A stretch of DNA of 64,000 bases from an uncultured beta proteobacterium (GCA_963725755.1 CAVRZW010000014.1:26799-90798); one strand, 5' to 3'. Positions 20,518 through 47,217 are shown, counted from the stretch's first letter. The notes: a model not told the origin generated them from the sequence alone. Translations and numbers: made by a program.

Positions 20518-20542
20518 GCCTCGCGACGACCCTCTGAACCTC

Positions 20543-23451: not shown

Positions 23452-24216
<765 letters not shown>

Positions 24217-29619: not shown

Positions 29620-29657
29620 CAGCGATTGACAGAGCCGGCCGCTCGCGGCTAGAGTGA

Positions 29658-29671
29658 TGTAAACGTTTCCA
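29658..29671. promoter_or_regulatory. candidate LacI-family operator upstream of the GH1 gene
   Basis: TGTAAACGTTTCCA has a perfect AAACGTTT core, and 12 of 14 positions are palindromic. It lies 64 nt upstream of ATG 29735. Confidence 0.5.
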
Positions 29672-29734
29672 CACCGACCGATCGGCGGCGTGGATCCGGC
29701 CGCCCCGGCCTCACCCTCCGCTTCCGGACCCTCC

Positions 29735-31093
29735 ATGAACAACGGCTTCCCCGACCGCTTCCTCTGGGGTTGCGCGACCTCGGCCTACCAGATCGAGGGC
29801 TCGCCGCTGGCCGACGGCGCGGGGCCGAGCATCTGGCAGCGATTCGCCCACACCCCGGGTCGGATCAGCGGCGGCGACACCGGCGACATCGCCTGCGACC
29901 ACTACCGCCGCTGGCGCGAGGACATCGCTCTGATGCGCGACCTGGGGCTGACCGCCTACCGCTTCAGCATCGCCTGGTCCCGCGTGCTGCCCGAGGGCCG
30001 CGGCCGCCCGAACCGCGCGGGCCTGGACTTCTACGAGCGGCTGGTCGACGAGCTGCTGCGCGCCGGCATCACCCCGATGGCCACGCTGTATCACTGGGAC
30101 CTGCCGGCAGCGCTCGACGACCGCGGCGGCTGGCTGAATCCGGACATCGCCGGCTGGTTCGCCGACTATGCGAGCCTCGTCTTCGAGGCCCTCGACGACC
30201 GCGTGCCGCTGTGGGCCACGATCAACGAGCCCTGGGTCGTCGCCGACGGCGGCTACATGCACGGCGTGCTCGCGCCCGGCCATCGCAGCGCCTTCGAAGC
30301 CGCGATCGCCGCCCACCAGATGCTGCGCGCGCATGCGGCCGCAGTGCAGGCCTACCGCGCCATCGGCCGCCACCAGGTGGGGTTGGTCGTCAACATCGAA
30401 CCCAAGCACCTCGGCGTCCAGGCCAGCGATGCCGACCGCCGCGCCCGCGATCTGGCCGATGCCTACATGAACCGCCAGTACCTCGACCCGGCGCTGCTCG
30501 GCCGCTACCCCGAGGAACTGGCGGCGGTGTTCGGTGCGGCCTGGCCGGCTTGGCCCGAGGCCGAGGTGCAGGCACTGAAGGCGCCGATCGACTTCATCGG
30601 CCTGAACTACTACACGCGCAGCGTGGTGCGCCACGACCCGGCGGCCTGGCCGGTCCCGGCCAGCGCGGTGCGCCAGCCACAGCACGCCTACACCGAGACC
30701 GGCTGGGAGCTCTACCCGGAAGGCCTGACCGAGACGCTGCTGTGGCTGCACCGCCGCTATGGGGGTGTGCCGCTGTACGTGACCGAGAACGGCGCCGCCT
30801 TCTACGACCCGCCGAGCGCGATCGAAGGCCGCATCGCCGACCCGCTGCGCGAGCATTACCTGCGCACCCACCTGTGCGCCGTGCGCGACGCGCGCGCGCA
30901 GGGGGCCGACGTGCGCGGCTACTTCGCCTGGTCGCTGCTCGACAACCTGGAGTGGGCGCACGGCTACTCGAAGCGATTCGGCCTCGTCCACGTCGACTTC
31001 GCGACCCAGCAGCGCACGCCGAAGGCGAGCGCGCGCTGGTACGCGCGGCTGATCGCCAGCGGCGGCGCCGCCCTGGAAGCAGCCACCGGCTGA
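29735..31093 (+). CDS. GH1 beta-glucosidase
   Basis: FLWGCATSAYQIEG is followed by TINEPW (acid/base NEP) and YVTENGAA (nucleophile ENG). The start is taken at MNNGFPDRF; the ORF opens at GTG 29690. Confidence 0.95.
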   Translation: MNNGFPDRFLWGCATSAYQIEGSPLADGAGPSIWQRFAHTPGRISGGDTGDIACDHYRRWREDIALMRDLGLTAYRFSIAWSRVLPEGRGRPNRAGLDFYERLVDELLRAGITPMATLYHWDLPAALDDRGGWLNPDIAGWFADYASLVFEALDDRVPLWATINEPWVVADGGYMHGVLAPGHRSAFEAAIAAHQMLRAHAAAVQAYRAIGRHQVGLVVNIEPKHLGVQASDADRRARDLADAYMNRQYLDPALLGRYPEELAAVFGAAWPAWPEAEVQALKAPIDFIGLNYYTRSVVRHDPAAWPVPASAVRQPQHAYTETGWELYPEGLTETLLWLHRRYGGVPLYVTENGAAFYDPPSAIEGRIADPLREHYLRTHLCAVRDARAQGADVRGYFAWSLLDNLEWAHGYSKRFGLVHVDFATQQRTPKASARWYARLIASGGAALEAATG

Positions 31094-31124
31094 TCCCCGG
31101 CGCCGGCCCTTGCGGCAGGCTTGG

Positions 31125-31182
31125 TGAAAACGATTACATGCAACCAGCGGCGAAACCTGTCCAATCGATGTAAACCTTTTCA
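31125..31182. promoter_or_regulatory. two further LacI-type operator-like half-palindromes upstream of the lacI-family gene
   Basis: TGAAAACGATTACA (31125-31138) and TGTAAACCTTTTCA (31169-31182) are each 10 of 14 palindromic. Both are related to the 29658 site. Confidence 0.45.
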
Positions 31183-31186
31183 TGCG

Positions 31187-32200
31187 ATGAGCGCCCCGAG
31201 CACGCCCACCACGCCCAGCACCATCCGCGATGTCGCCAAGGCCGCGGGCGTGTCCGTCGCCACCGTGTCGCGCGCGTTGAACGACACCGGCAAGGTGCTG
31301 CCCGACACGAAGGCGCGCATCCTGCAGGCCGCCGCCGCGCTGCGCTTCACGCCCTCGGGGGCCGCGCGCAGCCTGATCATGCGGCGCACCGAGACCATCG
31401 GCGCGCTGCTGCCCGACCTCTACGGCGAGTACTTCTCCGAGCTGATCCGCGGCATCGACCAGGCCGCACGTGGGCGCCGCCTGCATCTGCTCGTCTCCAG
31501 TTCGCACGGCGACGCCGAGGAGGCCGCCGCTGCGTTGCGCGCGATGAGCGGCCGGGTCGACGGGCTGATCGTGATGTCGCCCCATGCCGATGCCGAGTTC
31601 CTGGCCCGCAACCTGCCCGCGGGCGTGCCGGCCCTGCTCGTCAACACCGGCGTCGGGCTGGCCGGCCATTCGACCATTGCGGTGGACAACTTCGGCGGCG
31701 CCAAGGCGATGACGCAGCACCTGGTGGCGCGCGGCTACAAGCGCATCGCCTTCGTCGGCGGCCCGGCCGGCAACCACGAAGCGCGCGAGCGCCTGCGCGG
31801 CTACCGCGCCGGCCTGCCCAACGGCGCGGCGGCAATCCTGCTCGACGGCGATTTCACCGAGGAATCGGGCCGCGCCGCCGGGCGCGCGATCGCGCGCATG
31901 AAGCCGCGCCCGCAGGCGGTCTTCGCCGCCAACGACATGATGGCCATCGGCTGCCTGGCTGCGCTGGGCGACGCCGGCCTCACGGTGCCGCGGGACATCG
32001 CGCTGGCGGGCTTCGACGACATCCCGATCGCGCGCTACCTGACCCCCGCGCTGAGCACCGTGCGCGTGGGCATCGCCGAGCTCGGCCGGCGCGCGCTCGA
32101 AGGCCTGGTCACGTCGATCGACGCTGCCGGCCGCGAGGCCGACGTGCACGAGACCGTGCCGACCGAGCTCGTCGTGCGCGAGTCCTGCGGCTTCGGCTGA
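31187..32200 (+). CDS. LacI-family transcriptional regulator
   Basis: The HTH is TIRDVAKAAGVSVATVSRALN. The periplasmic-binding-protein-like effector domain includes AVFAANDMMAIG and PALSTVR. Confidence 0.9.
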   Translation: MSAPSTPTTPSTIRDVAKAAGVSVATVSRALNDTGKVLPDTKARILQAAAALRFTPSGAARSLIMRRTETIGALLPDLYGEYFSELIRGIDQAARGRRLHLLVSSSHGDAEEAAAALRAMSGRVDGLIVMSPHADAEFLARNLPAGVPALLVNTGVGLAGHSTIAVDNFGGAKAMTQHLVARGYKRIAFVGGPAGNHEARERLRGYRAGLPNGAAAILLDGDFTEESGRAAGRAIARMKPRPQAVFAANDMMAIGCLAALGDAGLTVPRDIALAGFDDIPIARYLTPALSTVRVGIAELGRRALEGLVTSIDAAGREADVHETVPTELVVRESCGFG

Positions 32201-32258
32201 GACGCGCGCTGCCGCCGCCCCCAACGATTCCACCCAGAACCGACAACCGGAGACAACC

Positions 32259-35195
32259 ATGAGCCCCCATGCAAGCAAGATCCGCCGCCACGCCCTCGCG
32301 GTGGCCGCCGCCCTGGCACTGGCCGGCGCCGCACACGCCCAGCTCGCCTCGTCCACGATCAAGGGTCAGATCACCGTCGGCGGCGGCGTCGCGGCGCAGC
32401 CCGGCACCGTGATTACCGCGGTCAACCAGGCCACCGGCAACACCTGGCGCACGACCGCCCGCGCCGACGGCAGCTACGTGCTGACCGGCCTGGCGCCGGG
32501 CTCGTACGAGATCCGGGTCGTCGGCCCCGGCGGCACGGTGCAGACCCAGGTCGTCACGGTCCAGGTCGGCGAGACGGCATCGATCGACCTCGCGCTCGAA
32601 GGCTCGCAACAGGTCACCATCGTCGGCTCGCTGCAACGCAAGGAGGTGCGCAACTCCGAGCTCGGCACCTCGGTCTCGCGCAAGCTGATCGACAGCCTGC
32701 CGCAGGCCACGCACAACTTCCTCAGCGCCGCCGACCTCGCGCCCGGCGTGGCCTTCGAGACCGACGGCAGCGGCAACGCCCGGCTCCAAGCCGGGGCGCA
32801 GAACTTCGACCACGTCAACGTCTACATCGACGGCGTCGGGATGAAGAACAACATCCTGCGCGGCGGGCTGACCGGGCAGGACAGCTCGCGCGGCAACCCG
32901 TTCCCGCAGTCGGCGATCGCCGAGTACCGCGTCATCTCGCAGAACTACAAGGCCGAGTACGAGCAGGTCTCCAGCGCCGCGATCACCGCCGTGACCAAGT
33001 CGGGCGGCAACGAGTTCCACGGCGACGCCTATGTCGACCGCACCGGCACCAACTGGCGTGCGCTGTCACCGTTCGAGAAGCAGAAGGAGGCGCAGGGCGT
33101 GGCGCTGCCGCCCTCGTCGAAGAACGAGTACGGCTTCAGCTTCGGCGGCCCGATCAAGAAGGACGAGGCGCATTTCTTCTTCGCCTACGACGGCAAGCGG
33201 ATCGAGGATTCGCGCCAGGTCGTGCCGCAGAACCTGGGCCTGCTGCCCGCCGGCCTGGGCATCGTGCCCTCGCTGGTGGCGGCCCAGGGCAGCCAGGTGG
33301 ACAAGTTCACCGAGCACCTGCTGTTCGGCAAGGTCGATCTCGAGCTCGGCGACGAGCAGCACCTGGCTGCCAGCGTGCGCGTGCGCCGCGAGTCCGACCA
33401 CGTGCCCGAGAACAGCAATCTCAGCGCGCCGGGCAACGACAAGAACCGCAGCAACGACGAGACCGCGTTCGACCTGTCGCACGAGTGGACGCACGGCGAC
33501 TGGTACAACGAGCTGCGCGCCGGCTACGAGAGCGCGGTCTGGAACCCGCATTCTTCGGCCACCACGCCCTTCGTCCGCTACAAGGTCTCGACGGCCGACC
33601 CGCAGCAGCTCGGGCAGTCGCAGGACGTCCTCTACACCGGCGGCTCGCCCGACGCGCAGAAGCGCGGCCAGAAGGGCCCCTACCTGGCCGAGAACCTGAC
33701 TTTCACCGGCCTGTCCGGGCATGTGTTCAAGGGCGGCCTGGGCATCAAGGCGATGCGCTACGACCTGTCGGGCACGGCCAACAGCGTGGACACCGTCGAC
33801 GCCCTGATCGACACCACCACCGGCCTGCCCTACTACGACGGCAGCCATTGCACCGGCACCAACTTCAGCAGCACCGGCCCGACCGAGACCACCGACCAGT
33901 GCCGGATCTCGCGCGCGATCCCGGGCACCGACGTCAACTACAGCAACAGCCAGATCGGCCTGTACATCCAGGACGACTGGTCGGTCACGAGGCAGCTCGA
34001 GTTCAACCTCGGCGTGCGCTACGACTTCGAGACCAACATGCTCAACAACGGCTACGTCACGCCGGCCGACCGGGTGGCGGCGCTGTATGCGCTGGACGTG
34101 CCGCGCTACGGCATCACGCCGACGGACGGGCAGACCTACGCCCAATCGCTGGCCAAGGGCGGCGTCAACATCGGCGACTACATTGCCGACGGCCACTCGC
34201 GCAAGACCTTCAGGGGCGGGATCGCGCCGCGGCTGGGCGCGTCGTACGACCTGCGCGGCGACCGCAACACGGTGCTGTTCGCCGGCTGGGGCCGCGCCTA
34301 CGACCGCACGATGGCCAACCATGCGCTCGACGAGCTGCAGAAGAACGCGCAGCCCAACGGCGAGATCTGGCTGATCCGCAACGACTTCAAGATGCCCTAC
34401 GCCGACCAGTTCACGCTCGGCCTGCGCCAGGCCGTGGGCCAGTGGAACGCCGAGGTGGCCGTCAGCCAGGTCCAGGCCAAGAACCAGTTCTTCTGGTTCA
34501 GCGGCAACCGTGACGCGAACGGCGGCTACGCCGACCAGAGCCCGATCGACCCGCTGTGGGGCGGGCCCAACGGCTACGGCTCGCTCATCCTGGGCGACTT
34601 CGTCGGCCAGACCAAGACCAACTCGCTGCTGGTGAAGGTCGAGAAGCCCTACACCCAGGCTTCGGGCTGGGCCGTCAACGTGGCCTACACGCACAGCGAC
34701 GCGAAGACGACCAACCGCGACTGGAACAACGACATCTTCGACTGGACCGCCGGCAAGCCCGGCGCGCATGGCTGGAACCCGTCGACCCTGGTCGACAAGG
34801 ACCGCGTCGTCGTCGCCGGCCTGGCCGACAAGCTGCTGCCCTGGGGGTTGGCGGTCTCGGGCAAGCTCACCTGGGCCAGCGGGATGCCGCGCCGGATCAT
34901 CAGCTGCGCGGCGGGCTGGGACAAGTGCATCGCCGTCGAAGGCGATGCGACGAGCTTCCGCCAGCTCGATGCCGGGATCAGCAAGGCCATCAAGTTCGGG
35001 GCCGCCAGCTTCACCTTGCGCGCCGACGTGCTGAACCTCTTCAACACCGTCAACTACGGCGGCTTCGACGACTGGGGTGGCGGCCCGGGCAACCCGCAGA
35101 ACGCGGTCGGCGGCGACAACCCCAACCTCGGCACGCCCAATTCGATCCGTGGCGACACGCGCACGCTGCGCCTGGCACTCAGCGCCAGTTTCTGA
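32259..35195 (+). CDS. TonB-dependent receptor with an N-terminal carboxypeptidase-regulatory-like domain (oligosaccharide type)
   Basis: The signal peptide ends ...AGAAHA. The CarbopepD_reg-like region is GQITVGG...DGSYVLTGLAPGSYEIRV. The plug includes NVYIDGVGMKN. The 978-aa barrel ends ...LRLALSASF with a terminal Phe. Confidence 0.9.
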   Translation: MSPHASKIRRHALAVAAALALAGAAHAQLASSTIKGQITVGGGVAAQPGTVITAVNQATGNTWRTTARADGSYVLTGLAPGSYEIRVVGPGGTVQTQVVTVQVGETASIDLALEGSQQVTIVGSLQRKEVRNSELGTSVSRKLIDSLPQATHNFLSAADLAPGVAFETDGSGNARLQAGAQNFDHVNVYIDGVGMKNNILRGGLTGQDSSRGNPFPQSAIAEYRVISQNYKAEYEQVSSAAITAVTKSGGNEFHGDAYVDRTGTNWRALSPFEKQKEAQGVALPPSSKNEYGFSFGGPIKKDEAHFFFAYDGKRIEDSRQVVPQNLGLLPAGLGIVPSLVAAQGSQVDKFTEHLLFGKVDLELGDEQHLAASVRVRRESDHVPENSNLSAPGNDKNRSNDETAFDLSHEWTHGDWYNELRAGYESAVWNPHSSATTPFVRYKVSTADPQQLGQSQDVLYTGGSPDAQKRGQKGPYLAENLTFTGLSGHVFKGGLGIKAMRYDLSGTANSVDTVDALIDTTTGLPYYDGSHCTGTNFSSTGPTETTDQCRISRAIPGTDVNYSNSQIGLYIQDDWSVTRQLEFNLGVRYDFETNMLNNGYVTPADRVAALYALDVPRYGITPTDGQTYAQSLAKGGVNIGDYIADGHSRKTFRGGIAPRLGASYDLRGDRNTVLFAGWGRAYDRTMANHALDELQKNAQPNGEIWLIRNDFKMPYADQFTLGLRQAVGQWNAEVAVSQVQAKNQFFWFSGNRDANGGYADQSPIDPLWGGPNGYGSLILGDFVGQTKTNSLLVKVEKPYTQASGWAVNVAYTHSDAKTTNRDWNNDIFDWTAGKPGAHGWNPSTLVDKDRVVVAGLADKLLPWGLAVSGKLTWASGMPRRIISCAAGWDKCIAVEGDATSFRQLDAGISKAIKFGAASFTLRADVLNLFNTVNYGGFDDWGGGPGNPQNAVGGDNPNLGTPNSIRGDTRTLRLALSASF

Positions 35196-35198
35196 GCC

Positions 35199-36614
<1,416 letters not shown>

Positions 36615-36628
36615 GCGCCTGTGAAGAC

Positions 36629-37906
36629 ATGCCGCTGACGCGCCGTCACTGCCTGGCCGGTGCGGCCGCGCTCGGCGCTGCGGCCTGCACGCGCGGCGAC
36701 GGGCGCACGATCCGCTTCTGGGCCATGGGCCGCGAAGGCGAGGTCGCGGTCGAGCTCGTGGCGGGCTTCGAGCGCGAGAACCCCGGCGTGCGGGTGCAGG
36801 TCGAGCAGCTGCCGTGGACCGCCGCCCACGAGAAGCTGCTCACCGCCTTCGCCGGCGACGCCACGCCCGACCTCGCGCAGATGGGCAACACCTGGCTGCC
36901 CGAGATGGCGGCGCTGGGCGCGATCGAGCCGCTGGCCGGCCGGCTCGCCGCCACGCCGTCGATCGTGCCCGCCGACCACTTCGCCGGCATCTGGCAGACC
37001 AACCAGGTCGACGGCGTGCGCGTCGGCGTGCCCTGGTACGTCGACACGCGGCTGCTGTTCCTGCGCAGCGACCTGCTGGCCGCGGCCGGCTTCAGGTCGC
37101 CGCCCACCGACTGGGCCGACTGGGTGCGCTGCATGGCCGCGCTGCAGCGCCGCGGCACGGCCACGCCGATCCTGCTGCCGACCAACGAATTCGAACCGCT
37201 GCTGGCACTCGGTCTGCAGACCGGCGGCGGGCTGCTGCGCGACGGCGGCCGCTATGGCAACTTCTCGGGCCCGGACTTTCGCCGCGCGCTGCAGTTCTAT
37301 CTGCAGCTCTTCGAGCGCGGCTTCGCGCCCGGCGTCAGCAACAACCAGATCGCCAACGTCTGGCAGGAGTTCGCGCGCGGCAGCTTCGCCTTCTACATCA
37401 CCGGCCCCTGGCAGATCGGCGAGTTCAAGCGCCGGCTGCCGGCTTCGTTGCAGTCGAGCTGGGCTACCGCACCACTGCCCGGCCCCGACGGCCCCGGGGC
37501 GTCGATCGCAGGCGGCTCGAGCCTGGTGCTGTTCCGTCGTTCGCGCGTGCAGGCGCTGGCCTGGAAGCTGGTCGAGTACCTCGCGCGGCCGGCGGTGCAG
37601 CTGGAGTTCTACCGCCTCACCGGCAATCTGCCGCCGCGGCGCAGCACCTGGGCGCTGCCACTCGACGGTGGCCCGCCGCTGACCGAGAACGTCCACGCAC
37701 GTGCCTTCGCCGAGCAGCTCGAGCGCGTGCGCCCGACGCCGGCGGTGCCCGAGTGGGAGCGCATCGCGCAGGAGATGCAGCTCGCCGCAGCGCGTGCGAT
37801 CGCCGGCCGCGCGGGCGTCGACGCCACGCTGCACGCGCTCGACGCGCGCGTCGATGCGATCCTCGAGAAGCGGCGCTGGATGCTGGCCCGTGCCGCGGTG
37901 GCCTGA
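36629..37906 (+). CDS. ABC transporter sugar-binding lipoprotein (CUT1 / family 1 SBP)
   Basis: The signal and lipobox are ...LGAAAC. WAMGREGE, PDLAQMGNTWLPE and GVPWYVDTRLLF are typical of extracellular solute-binding protein family 1. Confidence 0.85.
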   Translation: MPLTRRHCLAGAAALGAAACTRGDGRTIRFWAMGREGEVAVELVAGFERENPGVRVQVEQLPWTAAHEKLLTAFAGDATPDLAQMGNTWLPEMAALGAIEPLAGRLAATPSIVPADHFAGIWQTNQVDGVRVGVPWYVDTRLLFLRSDLLAAAGFRSPPTDWADWVRCMAALQRRGTATPILLPTNEFEPLLALGLQTGGGLLRDGGRYGNFSGPDFRRALQFYLQLFERGFAPGVSNNQIANVWQEFARGSFAFYITGPWQIGEFKRRLPASLQSSWATAPLPGPDGPGASIAGGSSLVLFRRSRVQALAWKLVEYLARPAVQLEFYRLTGNLPPRRSTWALPLDGGPPLTENVHARAFAEQLERVRPTPAVPEWERIAQEMQLAAARAIAGRAGVDATLHALDARVDAILEKRRWMLARAAVA

Positions 37907-37913
37907 GCGCGCG

Positions 37914-38810
37914 ATGAGCAGCCGCCGTTCGTCGCTCGCCGCCTGGGGCTTCGCCGCGCCGGCGCTGGCCGTGATCGCGCTGTTCTTCGTGCTGCCGGTG
38001 ATCGCGGGCCTGGCCCTGAGCCTGACCGACTTCGACATCTACGCCCTGGCCAGCCTGCGCAACCTGCGCTTCGTCGGCCTGGACAACTACGTCCAGATGC
38101 TGCAGCGGCCGCTGTTCTGGACCGCGCTGGCCAACACCGCGTATTTCGTGGTCGTCGGCGTACCGCTGTCGATCGGCGTCTCGCTGGCGACGGCGCTGCT
38201 GCTGCAGTCGAAGCTGGCGCGTTTCAAGCCGCTGTTCCGTACCGCGCTGTTCGCGCCGGTGGTGACCACGCTGGTTGCGGTGGCGGTGATCTGGCGCTAC
38301 CTGCTGCATGTGCGCTACGGCCTCGTCAACCAGGCCCTGCAGGCGCTGGGCTTGTCGCCGATCGACTGGCTGGGCGATCCGCACTGGGCGATGCCGGCGA
38401 TCATCGTCTTCGCGGCCTGGAAGAACTTCGGCGGCAACATGATCATCTTCGTCGCCGCGCTGCAGGCGATCCCCGAGGACCTGTACGAGGCCGCGCGGCT
38501 GGACGGCGCGCGCACCTGGGCACAGATCCGCCACATCACGCTGCCCTCGCTGGCGCCGACGCTGCTGATGGTCAGCATCCTCACCACCGCCGGCTACTTC
38601 CAGCTCTTCGCCGAGCCCTACGTGATGACCCAGGGTGGCCCGCTGCAGAGCACGGTCAGCGTGCTCTACCTGATGTACGACGAAGGCTTCAAGTGGTGGA
38701 ACCTGGGTGCCGCGTCCGCTGTCGCCTTCCTCCTGTTCCTGATCATCATCGCGGTCACCAAGGGCCTGCTGTGGCTGGCCGCGCGCTGGACGCCGGGGGC
38801 CGCCGCATGA
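37914..38810 (+). CDS. carbohydrate ABC transporter permease
   Basis: The protein has six TM segments and the EAA loop YEAARLDGARTWAQIRHITLP. Confidence 0.9.
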   Translation: MSSRRSSLAAWGFAAPALAVIALFFVLPVIAGLALSLTDFDIYALASLRNLRFVGLDNYVQMLQRPLFWTALANTAYFVVVGVPLSIGVSLATALLLQSKLARFKPLFRTALFAPVVTTLVAVAVIWRYLLHVRYGLVNQALQALGLSPIDWLGDPHWAMPAIIVFAAWKNFGGNMIIFVAALQAIPEDLYEAARLDGARTWAQIRHITLPSLAPTLLMVSILTTAGYFQLFAEPYVMTQGGPLQSTVSVLYLMYDEGFKWWNLGAASAVAFLLFLIIIAVTKGLLWLAARWTPGAAA

Positions 38811-39628
38811 AGCGCCCGCTGGCCACGCTGGCGGTCAACGGCGCGCTGCTGCTGGCCGCCGCGGCGGCGCTGTTCCCGCTGGCCTGGATGGTCGCCGTCT
38901 CGTTCATGCCGACCGGCGCGGCGAGCACCTACCCGCCGCCGATCTGGCCGCGCCAGCCGACGCTGGCGCATTACCGGCAGCTGCTCGCGCAAGGCGGCCT
39001 GGGCCGCGCCTTCGCCAACAGCCTGGGCCTGGCGATCGCCGCCACCGCGGTCTCGACCTTCCTCAACGCACTCGCCGGCTACTCCTTCGCGAAGCTGCGC
39101 TTTTCCGGCCGCGACCGGCTGTTCGCGCTGCTCATCGCCGCGCTCGTGATCCCGGGCCAGGTGGCGATGCTGCCGCTGTTCCTGATGCTCAAGAGCCTGG
39201 GCCTGGTCAACAGCTACGCCGGCGTGCTCGTGCCGTCGCTCGCCGGCATCTTCGGCATCTTCCTCGTGCGTCAGTACGCGCGCGGCATCCCCGACGAGCT
39301 GATCGAGGCCGCGCGCATCGACGGCGCCGGCGAGTTCAGGCTCTTCTTCGCCGTCGTGCTGCCGCTGCTCAAGCCGGTGCTGGTGACGCTGGCGGTGTTC
39401 GCCTTCCTCGGCAGCTGGAACGACTTCATGTGGCCGCTGATCGTGCTCACCGACACCGGGCTGCAGACGCTGCCGGTGGCGCTGGCCTCGCTGTCGCGCG
39501 AGCATGTGCAGGACAGCGAGCTGATGATGGCCGGCGCGGTGATCACGGTGCTGCCGGTGCTGCTGCTGTTCGTCGCGCTGCAGCGCTACTACATGCAGGG
39601 GCTGCTGATGGGCAGCGTGAAGGGATGA
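38807..39628 (+). CDS. carbohydrate ABC transporter permease
   Basis: The start overlaps upstream by ATGA. The EAA loop is IEAARIDGAGEFRLFFAVVLP. Confidence 0.9.
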   Translation: MKRPLATLAVNGALLLAAAAALFPLAWMVAVSFMPTGAASTYPPPIWPRQPTLAHYRQLLAQGGLGRAFANSLGLAIAATAVSTFLNALAGYSFAKLRFSGRDRLFALLIAALVIPGQVAMLPLFLMLKSLGLVNSYAGVLVPSLAGIFGIFLVRQYARGIPDELIEAARIDGAGEFRLFFAVVLPLLKPVLVTLAVFAFLGSWNDFMWPLIVLTDTGLQTLPVALASLSREHVQDSELMMAGAVITVLPVLLLFVALQRYYMQGLLMGSVKG

Positions 39629-42600
39629 AGAACGCCCGCGCCCTCGCGCTGCGCGTTGTCGCGTTGCTGCTCGCCGTCGCGCCGCTGGGGCCCGCAGCGC
39701 GTGCCGCGGGGCTGCGCCACGAGACGCTGGACGACTTCCGCGACGCCGAGGCCTGGACCGCGAGCGCCTCCGACCAGGTCCATGCCGCGTTGCGCCGCGA
39801 CCGCGACGGTGGCCTGTGCCTGGACGCCGACTTCGCCGGTGTCTCCGGCTATGCGGTGATGCGGCGCCAGCTGCCGGTGGACTGGCCGGCGCAGTTCGAC
39901 CTCGTCGCGCGCCTCAAGGGCGGCGGCGCGGCCAACGACCTGCAGCTCAAGCTCGTCGATGCCGGTGGCGACAACGTCTGGTGGGTGAACCGGCCGCACG
40001 CGGTGCTGCCGCGCGCGCTGGCCGATTGGAAGTTCAAGCGCCGCCATTTCGACTTCGCCTGGGGCCCGGCAGCCGATCACGCGTTGCGGCGCACGCAGGC
40101 GATCGAGTTCGTGCTCGCCGCCGGGCGCGCCGGTGGCCGCAGTTCGCTGTGCGTCGCGAAGCTGACGCTGGTCGAGCGCGCGCCCGACCCGGCGGTCTGG
40201 CCGACGCCCGTCGTTCGCCGCGGCGCGCGGCAGCTCGACATCGACTGGGGCCTGGTGCGCGAGTTCAACGGCGTCGCGCTGCACTGGCCGGCCGGCGCCA
40301 GCGGCCTGGACTACGAACTGCTCGCGTCCGACGATGCCCGGCAATGGCGCTGCTGCGCCGCGTCCGCGGCAGCGACGGCGGACTCGATGCGCTGTTCCTG
40401 CCCGAGCAGGAGGCGCGCCACCTGCGCGTGAAGCTGCTGCGCGGCAAGACGTTGCCGAGCCTGGCCTTGCGCAGCGCCAAGGACTGGCCCGACTTCAACG
40501 CCGTGCTCGAGGCACTCGCCGCCGAGCTGCCACGCGGGCAGCTGCCGCGGGCCTTCGCCGGCGAGCAGAACTACTGGACGCTGGTCGGCGTCGACGGCGG
40601 CGGCGAGCGATCCGGGCTGATCGGTGAAGACGGCGCGCTCGAAGTCGGCCGCGGCGGCTACAGCGTCGAGCCGGCGGTGCGGATGGACGACGGCCGCATC
40701 GCGACCTGGGCCGACGTCAGGATCGGCCACGGCCTGCGCGACGGCTACCTGCCGCAGCCGCGCGTGAGCTGGCAGGGCGACGGCTTCACGCTGGACATCG
40801 ACGCCACCGCCGACGGTCCGCGCGACGCGCCCGAACTGCTGGCGCGCTACACGCTGCGCAACACCGGCACGCGCACGCGCCGCTTCACGCTCTTGCTCGC
40901 GCTGCGGCCATGGCAGGTCAACCCGCCGCAGCAGTTCCTGAACACGCCCGGCGGCGCGAGCCCGATCGCATCGCTGCGCTGGGGCCCGCGGGGCCTGGCC
41001 GTCGATGGCCGGCCGCCGCTGCGCCCCAGCCCCGAGCCGCAGCACGTCACGGCGCTGCCCTTCGACGGCGGCCTGGGCCTGGCATCGCTGCTGGCCGCGC
41101 CGGCACTCGGCACGCTGCACGACGGCCAGGCGCATGCGTCGGCGGCAATGCAGTTCCGCCTCACGCTGGCGCCCGGCGCCGCGCAGACGCTGGGCTGGGT
41201 GGCGCCGCTGGGGGAGCATGCCACCTCCACGCGACTGACCTCGACGGCCGACCTCGACGCCCGCTTCGATGCCGCCGCTGCCGCCTGGCGCGCACGGCTG
41301 GACCGCGTGCGGCTGCGCGCCGGGCCCGCCGTGCAGCCGATCGCCGACACCCTGCGCAGCGCGCTGGCGCAGATCCTGATGTCGCGCGACGGCCCGGCGC
41401 TGCAGCCGGGCACGCGCTCGTACGCGCGGACCTGGGTGCGCGACGGCGCGATGATGGTCGCCGGCCTCGTGCGGCTGGGCGAAGTCGAGGTCGCGCGCGA
41501 GTTCGTCGACTGGTACGCGACGCATGTGTTCGCGTCGGGCAAGGTGCCCTGCTGCGTCGATGCGCGCGGCGCCGACCCGGTGGTCGAGAACGACAGCGCG
41601 GGCGAGTTCCTCTACGCGGTGGCCGAGGTCTGGCGCCACACCCGCGACGACGCCTGGCTCGCGCGCCACTGGGCCTTGATCCAGCGTGTCGTCGACCATC
41701 TCGAAAGCCTGCGCCAGAGCGAGCGCGGCGCGGACAACCGCAGCCCCGAACGCGCCAACCTGTTCGGGCTGCTGCCGCCTTCGATCAGCCACGAAGGCTA
41801 TTCGGCCAAGCCGGCCTATTCGTACTGGGACGACTTCTGGGGCCTGCGCGGCTACAAGGATGCGGTGGTCGTCGCGCGCGCGCTCGGCCACGCAGACGAG
41901 GCCACGCGCTGGGCCGGCTGGCGCGACGAGTTCGGGCGCGAACTGGCGCAGTCGGTCGCGGCCACCGCCCTGCGCGACCATCTCGACTACGTTGCCGGCG
42001 CCGCCGACCGCGGCGACTTCGACGCCACCTCGACCACCGTGGCGCTGAACCCGGCGCAGGCCGAACTGCCCGCGGGCCTGCTGCGAGGCACGTTCGAGCG
42101 CTACTGGCAGCAATCGCTGGCGCGCGCCGAAGGCCGCCGCGCCTGGAAGGACTACACGCCTTACGAGCTGCGCACGGTCGGCGCGTTGGCGCGTCTGGGC
42201 TGGCCCGAGCGCGCCCACGCGATGCTGCGTTTCTTCTTCGCCGACCAGCGGCCGGCGGGCTGGAACCAATGGGCCGAGGTCGTGCGCGCCGATCCGCGCG
42301 AGCGCGGCTTCCTCGGCGACATGCCGCATGCCTGGGTCGCGTCGGACTTCATCCGCTCGGCACTCGACCTCTTCGCCTACGAGCGCGAGCGCGACGACGC
42401 GATCGTCATCGGCGCCGGCTGGACCGACGCCTGGCGCGCCAGCGGCATCGAGATCAGCGGCCTGCAGACCGCGTGGGGCCGGCTCGACTACCGGCTGGCG
42501 CCGACGCCGCAGGGCTGGCTGCTGCAGCTGCCGCGCGCGCTCAGCGGCGGCCGGCTGCGCCTGGTCTGGCCCGGAAGCGGGCCGCTGCCCCATGCCAGCC

Positions 42601-42713
42601 ATCGAGGGCTGCCGCTGGCCTGGGACGGGCGCGAACTCGCGCTGCCGGCGGCGCCGGCCACCGTCCTGCTCGAACGTCCCGCCCCCGCAAACCCCGCCCC
42701 CGACAAGCCATGA
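39625..42713 (+). pseudogene. secreted multidomain glycoside-hydrolase-like protein of unknown family (beta-sandwich/discoidin-like modules plus an (alpha/alpha)6-like domain); frame broken near 40345
   Basis: The start overlaps upstream by ATGA. The signal peptide is MKNARALALRVVALLLAVAPLGPAARA. A discoidin-like signature, LDYELLASDDARQW, is followed in the other frame by LLRRVRGSDGGLDALFLPEQEARHLRVKLL. The C-terminal region has TRSYARTWVRDGAMM, VENDSAGEF and YSYWDDFWGLRGY, reminiscent of clan GH-L (GH15-like) barrels. The two halves are ORF 39430..40431 and ORF 39816..42713. Confidence 0.5.
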
Positions 42714-43441
42714 TCACCCGCCGAACCGCCCTGCTGGCCCCCGCCTTCGCCCCCGCGCTGATGACCGCCTGTTCCACCGTCCCCGCGCCGGCCGAAGGCC
42801 AGCACCCGCTGCAGCTCGACGTCCCCGGCACCGACACCCCGGTGCGCCTGCTGCTGGCGCTGCCGCGCGGCTACGCCGCATCGACCCGGCCCTGGCCGCT
42901 GGTCGTCTTCCTGCACGGCTCGGGCGAGCGCGGCAGCGACGTCGAGCGGGTCAAGGTCAACGGCCCGCCCAAGCTCGTCGGTGCGGGCGTCGAATACCCG
43001 TTCGTGCTCGTCTCACCGCAGCTCGACGAGGGCCGGCATTGGGAGCCCGGGTCCCTGAACGCCCTGCTGCAGGCACTGCGCTCGCGCCTGCGCATCGACC
43101 CCGACCGCGTCTGTGCCACCGGCCTGAGCCTGGGCGGCATCGGCGTGTGGGATTGGGCCACCGCCTACCCGGACGACCTCGCCGCCATCGCCCCGGTGTG
43201 CGGCTACGGCGACACCGACGACGCCTGCCGCGCGCGCCGGGTGCCGGTGCGCGCATACCACGGCGCCGACGATCCGGTGGTGCCGATCGCGCTCGAACAG
43301 GCCTCTGTCGATGCCCTGCGCGGCTGCGGCGGCAAGGTGGACTTCATCGTCTATCCGGGCGTCGGCCACAACGCCTGGGAGCGCGCCTATGCCGACCCCG
43401 CGCTCGTGCCCTGGCTGATGGCACAGCGGCGCCGGGCCTGA
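42710..43441 (+). CDS. alpha/beta-hydrolase esterase lipoprotein (phospholipase/carboxylesterase or PHB-depolymerase-like)
   Basis: The start overlaps upstream by ATGA. The lipobox is LMTAC. The sequence also has VVFLHGSGERG, the nucleophile elbow GLSLGG, HGADDPVV and GVGHNAW. Confidence 0.75.
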   Translation: MITRRTALLAPAFAPALMTACSTVPAPAEGQHPLQLDVPGTDTPVRLLLALPRGYAASTRPWPLVVFLHGSGERGSDVERVKVNGPPKLVGAGVEYPFVLVSPQLDEGRHWEPGSLNALLQALRSRLRIDPDRVCATGLSLGGIGVWDWATAYPDDLAAIAPVCGYGDTDDACRARRVPVRAYHGADDPVVPIALEQASVDALRGCGGKVDFIVYPGVGHNAWERAYADPALVPWLMAQRRRA

Positions 43442-43457
43442 GGACGCGGCGGGCCAG

Positions 43458-46400
43458 ATGCACATCCTGCGCGGCCGCTCGGGCCTGTGGTTCGAGATCC
43501 TCTCGCACGGCGGCGTGCGCCGCTGCGGCCGCGGCGACGACGTGCTGGGCCTGTTCGTCGGCAGCGAGGTCGAGGCCGCGCCGGCCAACCTGTGGCTGCG
43601 CCGGCAGCGCGCCGATGGCGTCGACCTTCTGCCGCTGCTCGGCCCGGCGAGCGCGTCGCGCCTGCACTTCAGCGCCGATCGCTTCGGCGCGGCCGGCGCG
43701 GCCGCGGGCCTGCAGTGGCAGATCGAGCTGGTGCTGGCGCAGGACGCGCCGGCCTGGTTCTGGCGCGTCGAGGTCTGCAACACCGGTGACGCGGTGCAGA
43801 CGCTGGAACTGGTGTGGGTCCAGGACGTCGCCCTCGCGCCCTATGGCGCACTGCGGTTGAACGAGCATTACGTCAGCCATTACATCGACCTCGCGCCACT
43901 GGCCCACCGCGAGCGCGGCTGGGTCGTCGCCGCGCGCCAGAACCTCGCCGTCGGCGGCCGCCACCCCTGGGCCCTGTTCGGCTCGCTGCAGCGCGCGGCC
44001 TCGTTCGCCACCGATGCCCTGCAGGTCCAGGGCCGGGGTGCGCGCAGCGGCGCGCAGCCGGCCGGACTGGTGCAGGGACTGCCAGCCCGGCGGTTGCAGC
44101 ACGAGCACTCGACGGTGGCGCTGCAGGACGCTCCCGTCGTGCTGGCGCCCGGCGAGAGCGCGGCGCTGGGCTTCTTCGGCCATTGCCTGCCCGACCACCC
44201 GGCGGCCACCAGCGAGGCCGACCTCGCGCTCGTCGAGGCGACGCTGGCACTGCCCGAAGCCACGCGGCCGCTGGCACCGCCCGCCGGGCCCGGCCAGGCG
44301 CCGGCCGCGACGCTGTTCAGTCAGCGACCGATGCTCGATGCGCTCGACCTCGGCGACGGCGAACTCGCCGCCCGGTACGCAGCGCCGCGGCGCCACGAAG
44401 AGCGCGACGGCGACACGCTGCTCGCGTTCTTCTGCGGCGACGCGTGCCACGTCGTGCTGCGCGCCAAGGAAGCGCAGGTGCTGCGGCCGCACGGCCACAT
44501 CCTGCGCACCGGCGCGCAGCTCGTGCCCGACGAGAGCGCGCTGACCTCGACCACCTGGATGGCCGGTGTGTTCCATTCGATGGTCACGCAGGGCCATGTC
44601 AGCATCAACCGCTTCCTGTCCACCGTGCACGGCTACCTGGGGCAGTTCCGCTCGCATGGCCTGCGCCTGTTCGTCGATCTCGGCGACGGCTGGCAGCAAC
44701 TCGGCGTGCCCTCGGCCTTCGAGATCGAGCCCGAAGGCTGCCGCTGGGTCTATCGCCATCGCGACGGGCTGTTCACGGTGCGCAGCCGCGCGCTCGACGC
44801 ACCGCAGCGGCTGGCGCTCGACATCGACGTCGCGCAAGGCGCGCCGCTGCGCTGGCTCGTCAGCCAACACCTCGCGCTGGCCGGTGACGACGGCAGCGCC
44901 GGCGGCCCGGCGCAGATCGGCCGCCTCGACGGCGGCGGCCTGTTCGTCGCGCCGCCACCGGGCAGCGATCTCGCGCGGCGCTTCCCTGGCGGCGGCTTCG
45001 TCGTCGAGCCGGCGCCGGACACGCGCTTCGAGCGTGTCGGCGGCGACGAGCTGCTGTACATCGACGGCCGCTCGCGCGCGCAGCCCTTCCTGTGCATCGA
45101 GATCGGCGCCGCGCCGCACTTCGGGCTGAGCCTGAACGGTCGCTTCGTCGAGCCTTCCCCGGCTGCCGACGCGGCGCCGCTGCCGCGGCTGCGCCTGCGC
45201 GCGCCGCCGGACGGCGCGCTGGCCGGCGGCATCGCGCAGCTCGACGAGATCGTTCCCTGGTTCGTCCACAACGCCCTCGTGCATTACCTGGCGCCGCGCG
45301 GGCTGGAGCAGTACTCGGGCGGCGGCTGGGGCACGCGCGACGTCTGCCAGGGTCCGCTGGAGATGCTGCTGGCCCTGGGCCGCACGGCGCCGGCGCGCGA
45401 CCTGCTGCTGCGCACCTACGCGGCGCAGAACGCCGACGGCGACTGGCCGCAGTGGTTCATGTTCTTCGAGCGCGACCGCGCGAACCGCGCCGGCGACTCG
45501 CATGGCGACATCGTCTTCTGGCCGCTGCTCGGCCTGGCCCGTTACCTGGCCACCAGCGGCGACGCGGCACTGCTCGACGAGGTGCTGCCGTTCCACGACG
45601 CCGAGCCGGCCCCGCTGTGGCAGCACGTGCAGCGCGCGCTGGCGCTGATCGACTCGCGCCGCATCGCCGGCACGAGGCTCGTGGCCTACGGGCACGGCGA
45701 CTGGAACGACGCCCTGCAACCCGCCGACCCGGCGCTGCGCGAACACCTGTGCAGCGCCTGGACGGTGACGCTGCACCACCAGATGCTGGTCGCCCTGGCG
45801 CAGGCGCTGCGCGGCATCGGGCGCGACGCCGACGCCGCGCCGCTCGACGCCGAAGCCGGGCGCGTGCAGGCCGACTTCAGGCGCTGGCTGCTCGTCGATG
45901 GCGTCGTCACCGGCTACGCGCTGTTCGCCGAAGAGGGCACGCCGCCCGGCCTGCTGCTGCATCCGAGCGACCGCAAGACCGGGCTGCGCTACAGCCTGCT
46001 GCCGATGATGCACGCGGTGCTGGAGAACCTGCTCTCGCCGGCCGAGGCGCGGCAGCAGCTGGCGCTGATCGGCGAGCACCTGCTGGGCCCCGACGGCGCG
46101 CGCCTGTTCGACGCGCCGCTGGCCTACCGCGGCGGGCCCGAGCGCATCTTTCAGCGCGCCGAGAGCAGCGCCTACTTCGGGCGCGAGATCGGCCTCATGT
46201 ACACCCACGCCCACCTGCGCTACGCCCAGGCGCTGGCCCATGTGGGCGACGCCGAGGGCTTCTTCGCGGCGCTGCTGCGCGCCCAGCCGCTGGGCCTGGG
46301 CGAACGCGTGGCGGCTGCGACGCCGCGCCAGGCCAACTGCTACTACTCGAGCTCGGACGCCGCCTTCGCCGACCGCTACGAGGCCTCGCGCGAGTACGCC

Positions 46401-46778
46401 CGCGTGCGCGCTGGCACGGTGGCGCTTGAAGGCGGCTGGCGCGTCTATTCCAGCGGCCCGGGCATCGCACTGGGCGTGCTGTGGCGGCAGCTCGTCGGCA
46501 TGAGCTGCGAGCACGACGAGCTGGCGCTCGACCCGGTGCTCCCGAGTGCCCTCGACGGCCTGCGCGCCGAGCTCGTCGTCGGCGATCGTGAGTTCGATGT
46601 CCTCTACCGCGTCGGCCGCGCCGGCTGCGGGCCGCTGGCCGTCACGCTCAACGGGCAGGCGCTCGCGTTCGCGCGCCGGGCCAATCCGTACCGCCTCGGC
46701 GCAGCGGCGGTGCCGCGGGCACTCTTCGAGTCGGCGTGCCGCGCCGGCCGCAATGCGCTGGTGATCGAGATCGCATGA
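43458..46778 (+). CDS. GH94-type glycoside phosphorylase, long form (candidate 1,2-beta-oligoglucan phosphorylase)
   Basis: The protein is 1106 aa. The catalytic-region signature is LVAYGHGDWNDAL. GGGWGTRDVCQG and YFGREIGLMYTHAHLRY are typical of the cellobiose-phosphorylase superfamily. No signal peptide is present. Confidence 0.75.
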   Translation: MHILRGRSGLWFEILSHGGVRRCGRGDDVLGLFVGSEVEAAPANLWLRRQRADGVDLLPLLGPASASRLHFSADRFGAAGAAAGLQWQIELVLAQDAPAWFWRVEVCNTGDAVQTLELVWVQDVALAPYGALRLNEHYVSHYIDLAPLAHRERGWVVAARQNLAVGGRHPWALFGSLQRAASFATDALQVQGRGARSGAQPAGLVQGLPARRLQHEHSTVALQDAPVVLAPGESAALGFFGHCLPDHPAATSEADLALVEATLALPEATRPLAPPAGPGQAPAATLFSQRPMLDALDLGDGELAARYAAPRRHEERDGDTLLAFFCGDACHVVLRAKEAQVLRPHGHILRTGAQLVPDESALTSTTWMAGVFHSMVTQGHVSINRFLSTVHGYLGQFRSHGLRLFVDLGDGWQQLGVPSAFEIEPEGCRWVYRHRDGLFTVRSRALDAPQRLALDIDVAQGAPLRWLVSQHLALAGDDGSAGGPAQIGRLDGGGLFVAPPPGSDLARRFPGGGFVVEPAPDTRFERVGGDELLYIDGRSRAQPFLCIEIGAAPHFGLSLNGRFVEPSPAADAAPLPRLRLRAPPDGALAGGIAQLDEIVPWFVHNALVHYLAPRGLEQYSGGGWGTRDVCQGPLEMLLALGRTAPARDLLLRTYAAQNADGDWPQWFMFFERDRANRAGDSHGDIVFWPLLGLARYLATSGDAALLDEVLPFHDAEPAPLWQHVQRALALIDSRRIAGTRLVAYGHGDWNDALQPADPALREHLCSAWTVTLHHQMLVALAQALRGIGRDADAAPLDAEAGRVQADFRRWLLVDGVVTGYALFAEEGTPPGLLLHPSDRKTGLRYSLLPMMHAVLENLLSPAEARQQLALIGEHLLGPDGARLFDAPLAYRGGPERIFQRAESSAYFGREIGLMYTHAHLRYAQALAHVGDAEGFFAALLRAQPLGLGERVAAATPRQANCYYSSSDAAFADRYEASREYARVRAGTVALEGGWRVYSSGPGIALGVLWRQLVGMSCEHDELALDPVLPSALDGLRAELVVGDREFDVLYRVGRAGCGPLAVTLNGQALAFARRANPYRLGAAAVPRALFESACRAGRNALVIEIA

Positions 46779-46929
46779 AGCGCGCCGCCGGCAGTGAGGC
46801 AGCCGCGGATCCTCGGTCGCCTCAGTCGGCGCAAAACGACATCCGCGCGTTCATGGATGGCCGGGCGTCGCGGATGGTGCTGGAATCGACGACGGCAAGT
46901 TGCCAACCCATCACGAGACGAGGAACCCC

Positions 46930-47205
46930 ATGAAGAAGACCCTGCTGACCGCGGCCATCACCGCGCTTGCCCTGATGACCGGTCAGGCTTTCGCGGCCGA
47001 CGCCGATTGCGCGGCCCAGGCCGCCGCGAAGAAGCTTTCAGGCGCCGCCAAGACCAGCTTCATCAAGAAATGCGAGAAGGACGCCGCCCCCGCCATGAGT
47101 GCCAGCTGCGAGAAGACGGCTGCCGAGAAGAAGCTGGCCGGCGCGGCCAAGGCGAGCTTCGTCAAGAAGTGCACGGCCGACGAGGCCGCCGGCAAGAAGA
47201 AGTAG
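46930..47205 (+). CDS. PsiF-repeat small periplasmic protein
   Basis: GAGG lies 6 nt upstream of the ATG. The signal peptide is MKKTLLTAAITALALMTGQAFA. There are two repeats, C..AAAKKLSGAAKTSFIKKC and C..AAEKKLAGAAKASFVKKC. Confidence 0.7.
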   Translation: MKKTLLTAAITALALMTGQAFAADADCAAQAAAKKLSGAAKTSFIKKCEKDAAPAMSASCEKTAAEKKLAGAAKASFVKKCTADEAAGKKK

Positions 47206-47217
47206 GAACGGGCGCCG

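Follow-up and report, generated by a model that had tools for sequence, protein, structure and literature searches.

A predicted LacI-controlled, TonB-dependent locus for beta-1,2-glucan utilization in an uncultured betaproteobacterium

The window analyzed here, a 64,000-nucleotide stretch of DNA from an uncultured betaproteobacterium (GCA_963725755.1, CAVRZW010000014.1:26799-90798), contains at positions 29,735 to 46,778, counted from its first letter, a conserved ten-gene operon on the plus strand, and the host is a Rubrivivax/Roseateles-like betaproteobacterium. With a probability of roughly 0.8, we interpret this operon as a LacI-controlled carbohydrate utilization (CUT) locus of the TonB-dependent receptor (TBDR) type, predicted to act on beta-1,2-glucans or beta-1,2-gluco-oligosaccharides such as the osmoregulated or cyclic periplasmic glucans of other bacteria. 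The interpretation rests wholly on homology and synteny. Both support the route put forward in the original prediction, which had been made from the DNA alone and ran from TBDR import through periplasmic endo-cleavage and ABC import to phosphorolysis and a glycoside hydrolase family 1 (GH1) clean-up step; added to it here are a binding protein resembling Lin1841 and, for the GH1 enzyme, a precedent in SGR_2426.

The G+C content of the window is about 70%, which makes raw lists of open reading frames noisy, and the plus-strand block was resolved through family searches combined with codon-position G+C. The ten genes are the following.

29735-31093, plus strand: GH1 beta-glucosidase (PF00232, E 1e-152)
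31187-32200, plus strand: LacI-family regulator (LacI helix-turn-helix and Peripla_BP_3)
32259-35195, plus strand: TBDR of 978 aa (CarboxypepD_reg, OMP_b-brl_4, TonB_dep_Rec_b-barrel)
35199-36614, plus strand: GH144 protein of 471 aa (PF10091, E 3e-78)
36629-37906, plus strand: CUT1 solute-binding protein (SBP; Pfam match)
37914-38810, plus strand: ABC permease 1 (BPD_transp_1)
38807-39628, plus strand: ABC permease 2 (Pfam match)
39625-42713, plus strand: large secreted protein, whole gene including a frameshift
42710-43441, plus strand: lipoprotein esterase of the alpha/beta-hydrolase type, 243 aa (Abhydrolase_2, DLH, Esterase)
43458-46778, plus strand: GH94 protein of the SOGP (1,2-beta-oligoglucan phosphorylase) type, 1106 aa (SOGP_N, SOGP_2nd, Glyco_hydro_94, SOGP_4th)

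From the LacI gene onward the intergenic distances are 58, 3, 14, 7, -4, -4, -4 and 16 nt, so that the block is tightly spaced with three ATGA overlaps, and a gap of 93 nt separates the GH1 and LacI genes. The same-strand block of 3-58 bp gaps or 4-nt overlaps that had been described earlier was thus recovered with every gene in its place on the plus strand.

The protein encoded at 35199-36614 is a predicted GH144 endo-beta-1,2-glucanase with strong homology to the characterized XcSGL (XCC2207, PDB 8xul) of Xanthomonas campestris (E 4e-180, 58% identity). Its match to PF10091 (Glycoamylase, the GH144 family) scores 262.7 bits against a cutoff of 27; the match to CpSGL (5gzh) has an E-value of 1e-37, and those to CpSGL and the sophorohydrolase BDI_3064 lie at about 1e-38 to 1e-41. 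Residues E239, F286 and Y367 of XcSGL, listed for the SGL clan in the paper on that enzyme (PMC12102758), align to E217 (within GYNE), F264 and Y345 of the window protein. The crystallized XcSGL chain carries Q at position 239, presumably as the mutant from which the complex was obtained. Read by eye, the N-terminus LTRRQALLLPAAAWLAGC combines a twin-arginine-like motif with an LAGC lipobox and looks like a Tat-type lipoprotein signal. The protein had originally been described as a Tat/lipobox "DUF3131 (GH144-like)" protein, of which the signal and the GH144 affiliation stand, while the Pfam family is PF10091 and not DUF3131; GH144 membership, on which the predicted pathway had been made to depend, is borne out by the family match, the identity to XcSGL and the retained clan residues.

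At the other end of the operon, the product of 43458-46778 is predicted to be a cytoplasmic SOGP on the strength of its homology and a fully conserved active site. SOGP_N (E 4e-59) and SOGP_2nd (E 1e-38) precede Glyco_hydro_94 and SOGP_4th, an arrangement that fits the SOGP architecture, in which a monomer-type protein of about 1100 aa holds two sandwiches (the additional N-terminal one being Ndom1), the GH94 barrel and a C-terminal domain, and the protein has no signal peptide. LpSOGP (5h3z) is matched at E 4e-163, whereas the cellobiose, lactose, chitobiose and cellobionic-acid phosphorylases are matched at 3e-09 or worse. The LpSOGP alignment consists of two stretches that follow the length of the protein except for window-protein residues ~458-590. 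Using the LpSOGP residue list in PMC5309861 (PDB chain numbering equals paper numbering plus 1), we found identity at the catalytic acid D760, at R630, D631, W758 and E917 of the -1 subsite and at Y922, H924 and S1005 of the phosphate site, in the motifs GDWND, RaessayfgRE, Y.H and YSS. The specificity residues Y141, R907 and R916 at subsite +1 and Q621, D631 and Y1004 at subsite +2 (LpSOGP numbering) are also conserved, their counterparts in the window protein being N135/Y138, R/R, Q618, D628 and Y, while the water-mediated G623 and A626 of LpSOGP are replaced by S and G. Both the domains and the E-values set the protein apart from beta-1,4 and beta-1,3 phosphorylases, as the earlier assignment had anticipated.

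These two enzymes bear most directly on whether the target might be some other beta-glucan (cellodextrin, laminarin or a mixed-linkage glucan), with the GH94 and GH144 assignments being misleading. A GH1 enzyme and a CUT1 transporter are generic components, and other GH94 members do act on beta-1,4 or beta-1,3 substrates. However, the SOGP-type N-terminal domains, the E-values, which separate LpSOGP from the cellobiose/chitobiose phosphorylases by ~150 orders of magnitude, and the conservation of the SOGP-specific +1/+2 residues Y141, R907, Q621 and Y1004 make such a target extremely improbable. So does the specificity of XcSGL, which hydrolyses beta-1,2-glucan and is inactive on cellulose, laminarin, lichenan, barley glucan and the other polysaccharides listed with them (PMC12102758).

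The transport genes fit a beta-1,2-glucan locus at the inner membrane. The best PDB matches of the SBP are a Xanthomonas SBP (3uor, E 8e-144), which we take to be the X. citri orthologue XAC2310, and then Lin1841 (5ysb, E 5e-56), with all remaining matches at 1e-33 or worse. Its closest characterized relative is thus the sophoro-oligosaccharide (Sop(n))-binding Lin1841, and the protein is a predicted binder of beta-1,2-gluco-oligosaccharides. The two permease genes overlap by 4 nt. At the outer membrane, the TBDR is Oar-like, with an N-terminal CarboxypepD_reg domain followed by matches to barrel models, and a signal peptide and a C-terminal Phe can be read by eye, together with VTIVGS as a candidate TonB box. 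Pfam searches detected no SusD-like family in any protein of the block, and there is accordingly no SusC/SusD pair of the kind that marks a Bacteroidota Sus-like polysaccharide utilization locus (PUL).

An Oar-like receptor raises a second alternative, in which the TBDR would work outward and secrete an enzyme of the locus across the outer membrane instead of importing glucan. Myxococcus Oar reportedly secretes the protease PopC, the window protein belongs to the same Oar-like subclass with a CarboxypepD_reg N-domain, and cyclic glucans of 13-25 residues are a large cargo for a TBDR. Against this, the lipoprotein or Sec signals of the enzymes suffice for a periplasmic location, and the TBDR gene has a sugar-type regulator, an inner-membrane transporter and degradative enzymes as its neighbors, the pattern that defines an import CUT locus and that has been shown for sucrose. 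We therefore consider outward transport very unlikely and favor glucan import.

To assess conservation, we took an intact homologue of the large protein as the query and scanned GTDB at one genome per species, which returned at least 590 stretches encoding such a homologue, in Burkholderiales, Myxococcota and Xanthomonadales. All ten proteins were mapped in the best 80 of these (at least 590) loci, and the counts that follow use loci with enough flanking sequence. The TBDR, GH144, SBP and both permease genes lie 5' of the large-protein gene in the same order and on the same strand in 53 of 54 loci, and LacI is present in 51 of the 54. Such recurrence puts the block far outside what chance would give. 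Downstream, an SOGP gene occurs in 48 of 62 loci and an esterase gene in 30 of 62. GH1 is present in most loci: it lies 5' of LacI in most of those from Rubrivivax, Roseateles, Pelomonas and Ideonella, whereas in Duganella and in Anaeromyxobacter-type Myxococcota it lies downstream. The window proteins have their nearest relatives, 65-85% identical at the protein level, in Burkholderiales of the Rubrivivax, Piscinibacter and Aquincola type, with none near-identical.

The relationship to Xanthomonas was traced by rebuilding the XcSGL sequence from its PDB alignment, locating it in the protein collection and taking the surrounding X. campestris neighborhood. The gene order there is LacI, TBDR (CarboxypepD_reg), XcSGL, SBP, permease, permease, a 1044-aa F5/8-type-C protein and an Exo_endo_phos protein. 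By tblastn the seven core genes are orthologous in order at 54% (LacI and XCC2209), 35% (the TBDR and XCC2208, over the full length), 58, 53, 69 (permease 1), 69 and 36-47% identity, and the Xanthomonas core set corresponds to XCC2203-XCC2209. In 2007 these genes were catalogued as a "putative partial CUT locus" (Blanvillain et al., PMC1790865, Table S3), XCC2208 was classed as an Oar-like pseudo-TBDR without a canonical plug, and conservation of the locus in X. citri, Xylella and Sphingopyxis was noted (PMC1790865). The substrate of XCC2203-2209 could be inferred only after XcSGL had been characterized in 2025. In the searchable literature we found no paper that draws this connection to a substrate or discusses XCC2203, and searches for XCC2202-2205, XAC2307 and XC_1911 gave nothing relevant.

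The Xanthomonas comparison also bears on a third alternative, namely that the enzymes mainly recycle the cell's own periplasmic beta-1,2-glucans, for example after an osmotic upshift, with the TBDR being peripheral or recapturing leaked glucan. A periplasmic location or a lipoprotein nature is predicted for GH144, the esterase and the large protein alike; Xanthomonas synthesizes an alpha-1,6-cyclized beta-1,2-glucan of its own and keeps the core locus; and orphan copies of the large-protein gene stand among housekeeping genes in some Roseateles genomes. In addition, PhoP and low osmostress co-regulate only two genes in X. citri, those for the TBDR orthologue XAC2312 and for a beta-glucosidase (PMC9108719), which hints that the locus is connected with osmoregulated glucans. 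On the other side, the retention of a dedicated TBDR in 53 of 54 loci speaks for uptake from the surroundings, and no opgGH, ndvB or cgs gene occurs within the 64-kb window. Recycling as the main role is accordingly plausible yet, in our judgment, unlikely; recycling and scavenging are compatible and not mutually exclusive.

Regulation ties the GH1 gene to the remainder of the operon. The elements upstream of GH1 and LacI are as follows.

29626-29655, plus strand: sigma-70-like promoter TTGACA-18-TAGAGT, 5' of GH1, with 10 of 12 consensus matches
29657-29672: LacI-type operator O1, ATGTAAACGTTTCCAC, abutting the -10 element, with 1 mismatch to the pattern
31124-31139 and 31168-31183: two LacI-type operators 44 nt apart, 5' of the LacI gene

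The promoter is a consensus match and nothing more, and is the only such site in 29400-47400. The three operators share a palindrome of 14-16 nt with the consensus TGTAAACGTTTACA, and the pattern has 8 matches in the window (each site counted on both strands) where 0.05 would be expected by chance. In related loci the same motif lies 32-68 nt 5' of GH1, and operator pairs ~43 nt apart are kept 5' of LacI in most cases. Because the motif is common to the regions upstream of GH1 and LacI, as had been predicted, GH1 would belong to the same regulon, and the LacI repressor is probably autoregulated. A fourth, weaker operator-like match at 32812-32827 lies inside the TBDR gene and was not counted as an operator; this segment encodes the peptide VNVY and recurs at the same place in the Pelomonas and Roseateles orthologues because that peptide is conserved.

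The GH1 protein itself has 452 aa and no signal peptide. It matches the TIGR03356 BGL equivalog with 585 bits against a cutoff of 478, and GH1 beta-glucosidases in the PDB at a best E-value of 4e-206. From its context and the precedent of SGR_2426, whose +1 subsite residues are Trp291, Gln229 and Met171 (PMC12369401), we propose that it splits sophorose, the end product of SOGP. The original prediction had placed GH1 just upstream of the block; it does lie 5' of LacI, but it is the first gene within 29,735-46,778, and the gene that adjoins the block is a kinase gene (28258-29619, plus strand). This gene, which encodes a Ser/Thr kinase fused to a cNMP-binding domain, lies directly 5' of the GH1 promoter and outside the conserved locus. 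On the far side, the downstream neighbor of the SOGP gene is a divergent LysR gene (47218-48147, minus strand). An open reading frame of 162 aa at 46794-47282 (plus strand), which follows SOGP, is Arg-rich and without a family match, and was set aside as a likely artefact of high G+C.

The lipoprotein esterase matches the 3doh esterase at E 1e-24, and models of the polyhydroxybutyrate-depolymerase type remain below cutoff. A carboxylesterase in this position is proposed to take acyl substituents off the glucans. In Xanthomonas (L081:17926-18798), a secreted Exo_endo_phos protein follows the large protein where the esterase and SOGP sit here; this protein may be an alternative enzyme for stripping decorations from substituted glucans, and would suit phosphodiester substituents.

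The remaining gene encodes the large secreted protein, which had been described as a "1029-aa secreted unknown". It is secreted and uncharacterized as stated, but it is not a single open reading frame, since a 1-nt frameshift interrupts it near 40351.

39625-40350, plus strand: N-terminal part, with signal peptide, CBM11-like beta-sandwich and CBM32/discoidin module
40351-40352, plus strand: 1-nt deletion (frameshift) relative to intact homologues
40353-42713, plus strand: C-terminal part, with beta-supersandwich, (alpha/alpha)6 barrel and C-terminal beta-sandwich

Intact homologues of 1005-1030 aa and ~70% identity align to 39625-40350 and 40353-42713 in different frames, and at the junction (...DARQWR, then TG, then LRRVRGS...) one base of a codon is missing. 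A single uninterrupted frame crosses the junction in 74 of 75 related loci: 68 are directly unbroken, and 6 of the 7 others were flagged only since the alignment passed the normal stop. The seventh, a homologue in a Rubrivivax metagenome-assembled genome (L007:10004-12991), has an internal stop at about residue 706, from an assembly error or in a pseudogene.

At least two further genes of the window are broken in a similar manner. lptB, which encodes the essential lipopolysaccharide-export ATPase (~23452-24200, minus strand), is split between two frames, and a second TBDR gene (17571-20518, plus strand) has a frame break near 19050-19100: one frame covers the plug and the N-terminal barrel (...GNWDYEVG), a different one the remainder (...ALYGQDKLTEK... 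to the C-terminal LTAGYKF). That three genes, including an essential one, are broken within 64 kb argues for assembly indel errors rather than gene decay, and the large gene is probably intact in the organism. Programmed frameshifting at 40351 was rejected, as there is no slippery heptamer, the homologues are intact and other window genes are broken. A fourth alternative takes the frameshift as real, so that the locus would be decaying, with the large protein lost and polarity on the genes downstream. The break does stand in the available sequence, outside any long homopolymer. However, the companion frameshifts in lptB and TBDR 17571-20518 are the signature of assembly indels, no slippery site could rescue the frame by programmed frameshifting, and every other gene of the locus has its full length when compared with homologues, and we judge decay to be improbable.

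With the gene taken as intact, its product represents an uncharacterized family with a clan-L/Q-like fold that is not GH15. The family comprises 1261 clusters at 50% identity (E<=1e-30), and its members are annotated at source as "hypothetical" or under "discoidin domain" names. F5_F8_type_C is detected in the homologues, and the family profile identifies, in the N-terminal part, CBM32 (carbohydrate-binding module family 32) at E 1.6e-12 and, weakly, CBM11 (0.014). For the catalytic part, neither the single sequence nor a close-homologue profile nor a 109-member diverse profile found a PDB relative, the only matches being to the CBM32/CBM11 modules, and hhalign of the large-protein profile against the window GH94 gave no match. 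A confident AlphaFold2 model of the C-terminal 786 residues (pLDDT 82.6, pTM 0.86), which shows the domains given above for this part, was placed by Foldseek near dextran dextrinase, GH94, Cgs, GH65, GH15 glucodextranase, GH78, GH95 and GH116 at TM ~0.41-0.57 and 9-14% identity. For dextran dextrinase, GH94, Cgs and GH15-type folds, TM is ~0.55 at 10-14% identity, and the Foldseek probability reaches 1.0, with TM ~0.5-0.57, for hits that include dextran dextrinase, GH65, GH94 and the GH15 glucodextranase. Sequence echoes fall far below family thresholds: TIGR01577 "oligosaccharide amylase" is reached at 2e-07 (30 bits against a cutoff of 821), alongside an archaeal trehalase, and GH15, GDE_C and Bac_rhamnosid6H are all under their cutoffs. 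Family-level membership of GH15 (clan GH-L) was thus rejected, as the fold fits while the sequence does not reach the family level.

Across the 109 diverse members, the invariant acidic residues (C-part numbering) include D364 (W-x-R-D), E412, D414, E481 (SISHEGY), D493, D555, E605, E642 (WNQWAEVV) and D656. E481 and E642 presumably lie at the GH15 acid/base positions of glucoamylase, which is a lead and not a test. The Sec signal peptide should make the protein periplasmic, which favors a hydrolase or transglycosylase over a phosphorylase. We offer as a tentative proposal, more probably wrong than right, that the protein founds a new GH family that finishes what GH144 cannot, for example by opening or trimming alpha-1,6-cyclized beta-1,2-glucans (CbetaGalpha). 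In its specific form, the protein may hydrolyze the alpha-1,6 closure linkage or the limit pentasaccharide resistant to SGL and beta-glucosidase. CbetaGalpha is made by Xanthomonas, Ralstonia and others, and its digestion by CpSGL plus beta-glucosidase stops at a "non-degradable glucopentaose" (bioRxiv 10.1101/2025.04.21.649730). In favor of this proposal are the strict linkage of the large protein to GH144 and a transporter for Sop(n), seen in 53 of 54 loci with Xanthomonas among them, the restriction of its sequence echoes to alpha-glucoside hydrolases of the GH15, GDE and trehalase type, and the invariance of E481 and E642 in all 109 members. Orphan homologues are also found in Roseateles/Paucibacter (L011, L016, L017, L019), among housekeeping genes (polA, H+-PPase) and with no glucan locus nearby, a setting that is uninformative as to function.

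Taken as a scavenging pathway for beta-1,2-glucan, the locus would operate in six steps. The Oar-like TBDR would move glucan or large oligosaccharides across the outer membrane, and the lipoprotein GH144 enzyme, given its homology to XcSGL, would cut the glucan to short sophoro-oligosaccharides. In the periplasm, the esterase may strip acyl groups while the large CBM32-(alpha/alpha)6 protein may hydrolyze what GH144 leaves over. The Lin1841-like SBP and the two permeases, energized by an ATPase from elsewhere, are predicted to import Sop(n), which SOGP, with its conserved active site, would phosphorolyze at n>=3 to glucose-1-phosphate and sophorose. Finally, GH1 would split sophorose to glucose, as its context and the 2025 precedent suggest. 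LacI would act on the three operators 5' of GH1 and of its own gene and be released by an intermediate of the pathway.

Several points weigh against this scheme. The substrate of the TBDR is not readable from its sequence, and the Pfam Plug model was not detected on it in Pfam searches, as is also the case for XCC2208. XCC2208 was, moreover, not induced by the sugars of the 2007 study, among which beta-1,2-glucan was not included (PMC1790865). No gene for a MalK/MsiK-type ABC ATPase occurs in the whole 64-kb window or in the Xanthomonas locus as fetched, and the importer must use an ATPase encoded elsewhere; CUT1 systems commonly have no neighboring ATPase gene. The removal of acyl groups by the esterase and an accessory role for the large protein are both guesses from context. 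Finally, a frameshift that is genuine could upset the coupling of translation to the esterase and SOGP genes.

Each step has a characterized or proposed counterpart, in the CUT loci (2007), SOGP (2014-2018), GH144 (2017/2025), Ignavibacterium (2022) and the GH1 Sop2-ase (2025). The closest is Xanthomonas XCC2203-2209, which has the same seven-gene core in the same order, including a ~1040-aa CBM32-(alpha/alpha)6 protein, but no SOGP, GH1 or esterase, and which ends with the Exo_endo_phos protein; in the literature searched, only its GH144 enzyme has been characterized biochemically (Nakajima et al. 2025, PMC12102758), and not the locus as a system. The sux sucrose CUT locus of Xanthomonas shares the architecture of TBDR, inner-membrane transporter, cytoplasmic enzyme and LacI-type regulator, and TBDR-dependent high-affinity uptake has been shown for it experimentally (PMC1790865); its substrate, enzymes and transporter type differ, SuxC not being an ABC protein.

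Among more distant systems, the SOGP clusters of Listeria innocua (lin1839-1841) and Lachnoclostridium phytofermentans (Nakajima 2014, PMC3960220; Nakajima 2017, PMC5309861) have the same cytoplasmic end, with a Sop(n) SBP, permeases, SOGP and a sophorose-clearing beta-glucosidase. In contrast to the window locus, they are Gram-positive, with no outer-membrane step and no GH144, and the beta-glucosidase is GH3 (Lin1840) rather than GH1. The Streptomyces griseus cluster SGR_2422-2427 brings together a GH1 enzyme preferring sophorose/Sop(n), a Lin1841-like ABC transporter, a putative esterase and an endo-beta-1,2-glucanase (PMC12369401, 2025), but it too is Gram-positive, its glucanase is GH193 and not GH144, and SOGP and a TBDR are absent. 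In Gram-negative Ignavibacterium album, the cluster IALB_1177-1187 (Kobayashi et al. 2022, PMC8861115) combines GH144 enzymes and a GH94 homologue of SOGP with both a TonB-dependent transporter and an ABC system of the Sop(n) type, and the same route from TonB transporter through periplasmic GH144 and ABC import to SOGP was speculated there (PMC8861115). Ignavibacterium belongs to another phylum, has a GH35 transglycosylase and a GH94 of the Cgs-C-terminal type, and no CBM32-(alpha/alpha)6 protein is mentioned; on a beta-glucosidase the paper is divided, its Discussion stating that there is no homologue and its Introduction listing a putative GH3 gene (PMC8861115). Bacteroidota Sus-like PULs (Chitinophaga CpSGL; the B. 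thetaiotaomicron BT_3567 cluster) likewise combine GH144 with TonB-dependent uptake of beta-1,2-glucan fragments, but use SusC/SusD pairs, whereas the window locus has no SusD-like protein.

The original prediction had suggested that this combination of enzymes and a TBDR was uncharacterized in Betaproteobacteria. In the searchable literature we found no characterized betaproteobacterial case and no described proteobacterial system joining TonB to beta-1,2-glucan, GH144 or SOGP, and to that extent the suggestion holds; it is tempered by the cataloguing of the Xanthomonas core in 2007, the characterization of its GH144 enzyme in 2025 and the proposal of the route for Ignavibacterium in 2022. 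The operon of the window is a more complete form of the Xanthomonas core, to which SOGP, GH1 and an esterase are added, and it is expected rather than surprising, its novelty being modest.

Beta-1,2-glucans, both osmoregulated periplasmic and cyclic, are made by many proteobacteria and are factors in symbiosis and virulence, while their consumers in soil and water are little known. With its more than 590 relatives, the locus suggests that Burkholderiales, Myxococcota and Xanthomonadales share a widespread route that would pair TonB-dependent uptake and periplasmic GH144 cleavage with energy-saving cytoplasmic phosphorolysis. The finding would also supply a substrate for a Xanthomonas CUT locus that has lacked one since 2007, and it marks the large and abundant family of periplasmic CBM32-(alpha/alpha)6 proteins as a next target in beta-1,2-glucan enzymology.

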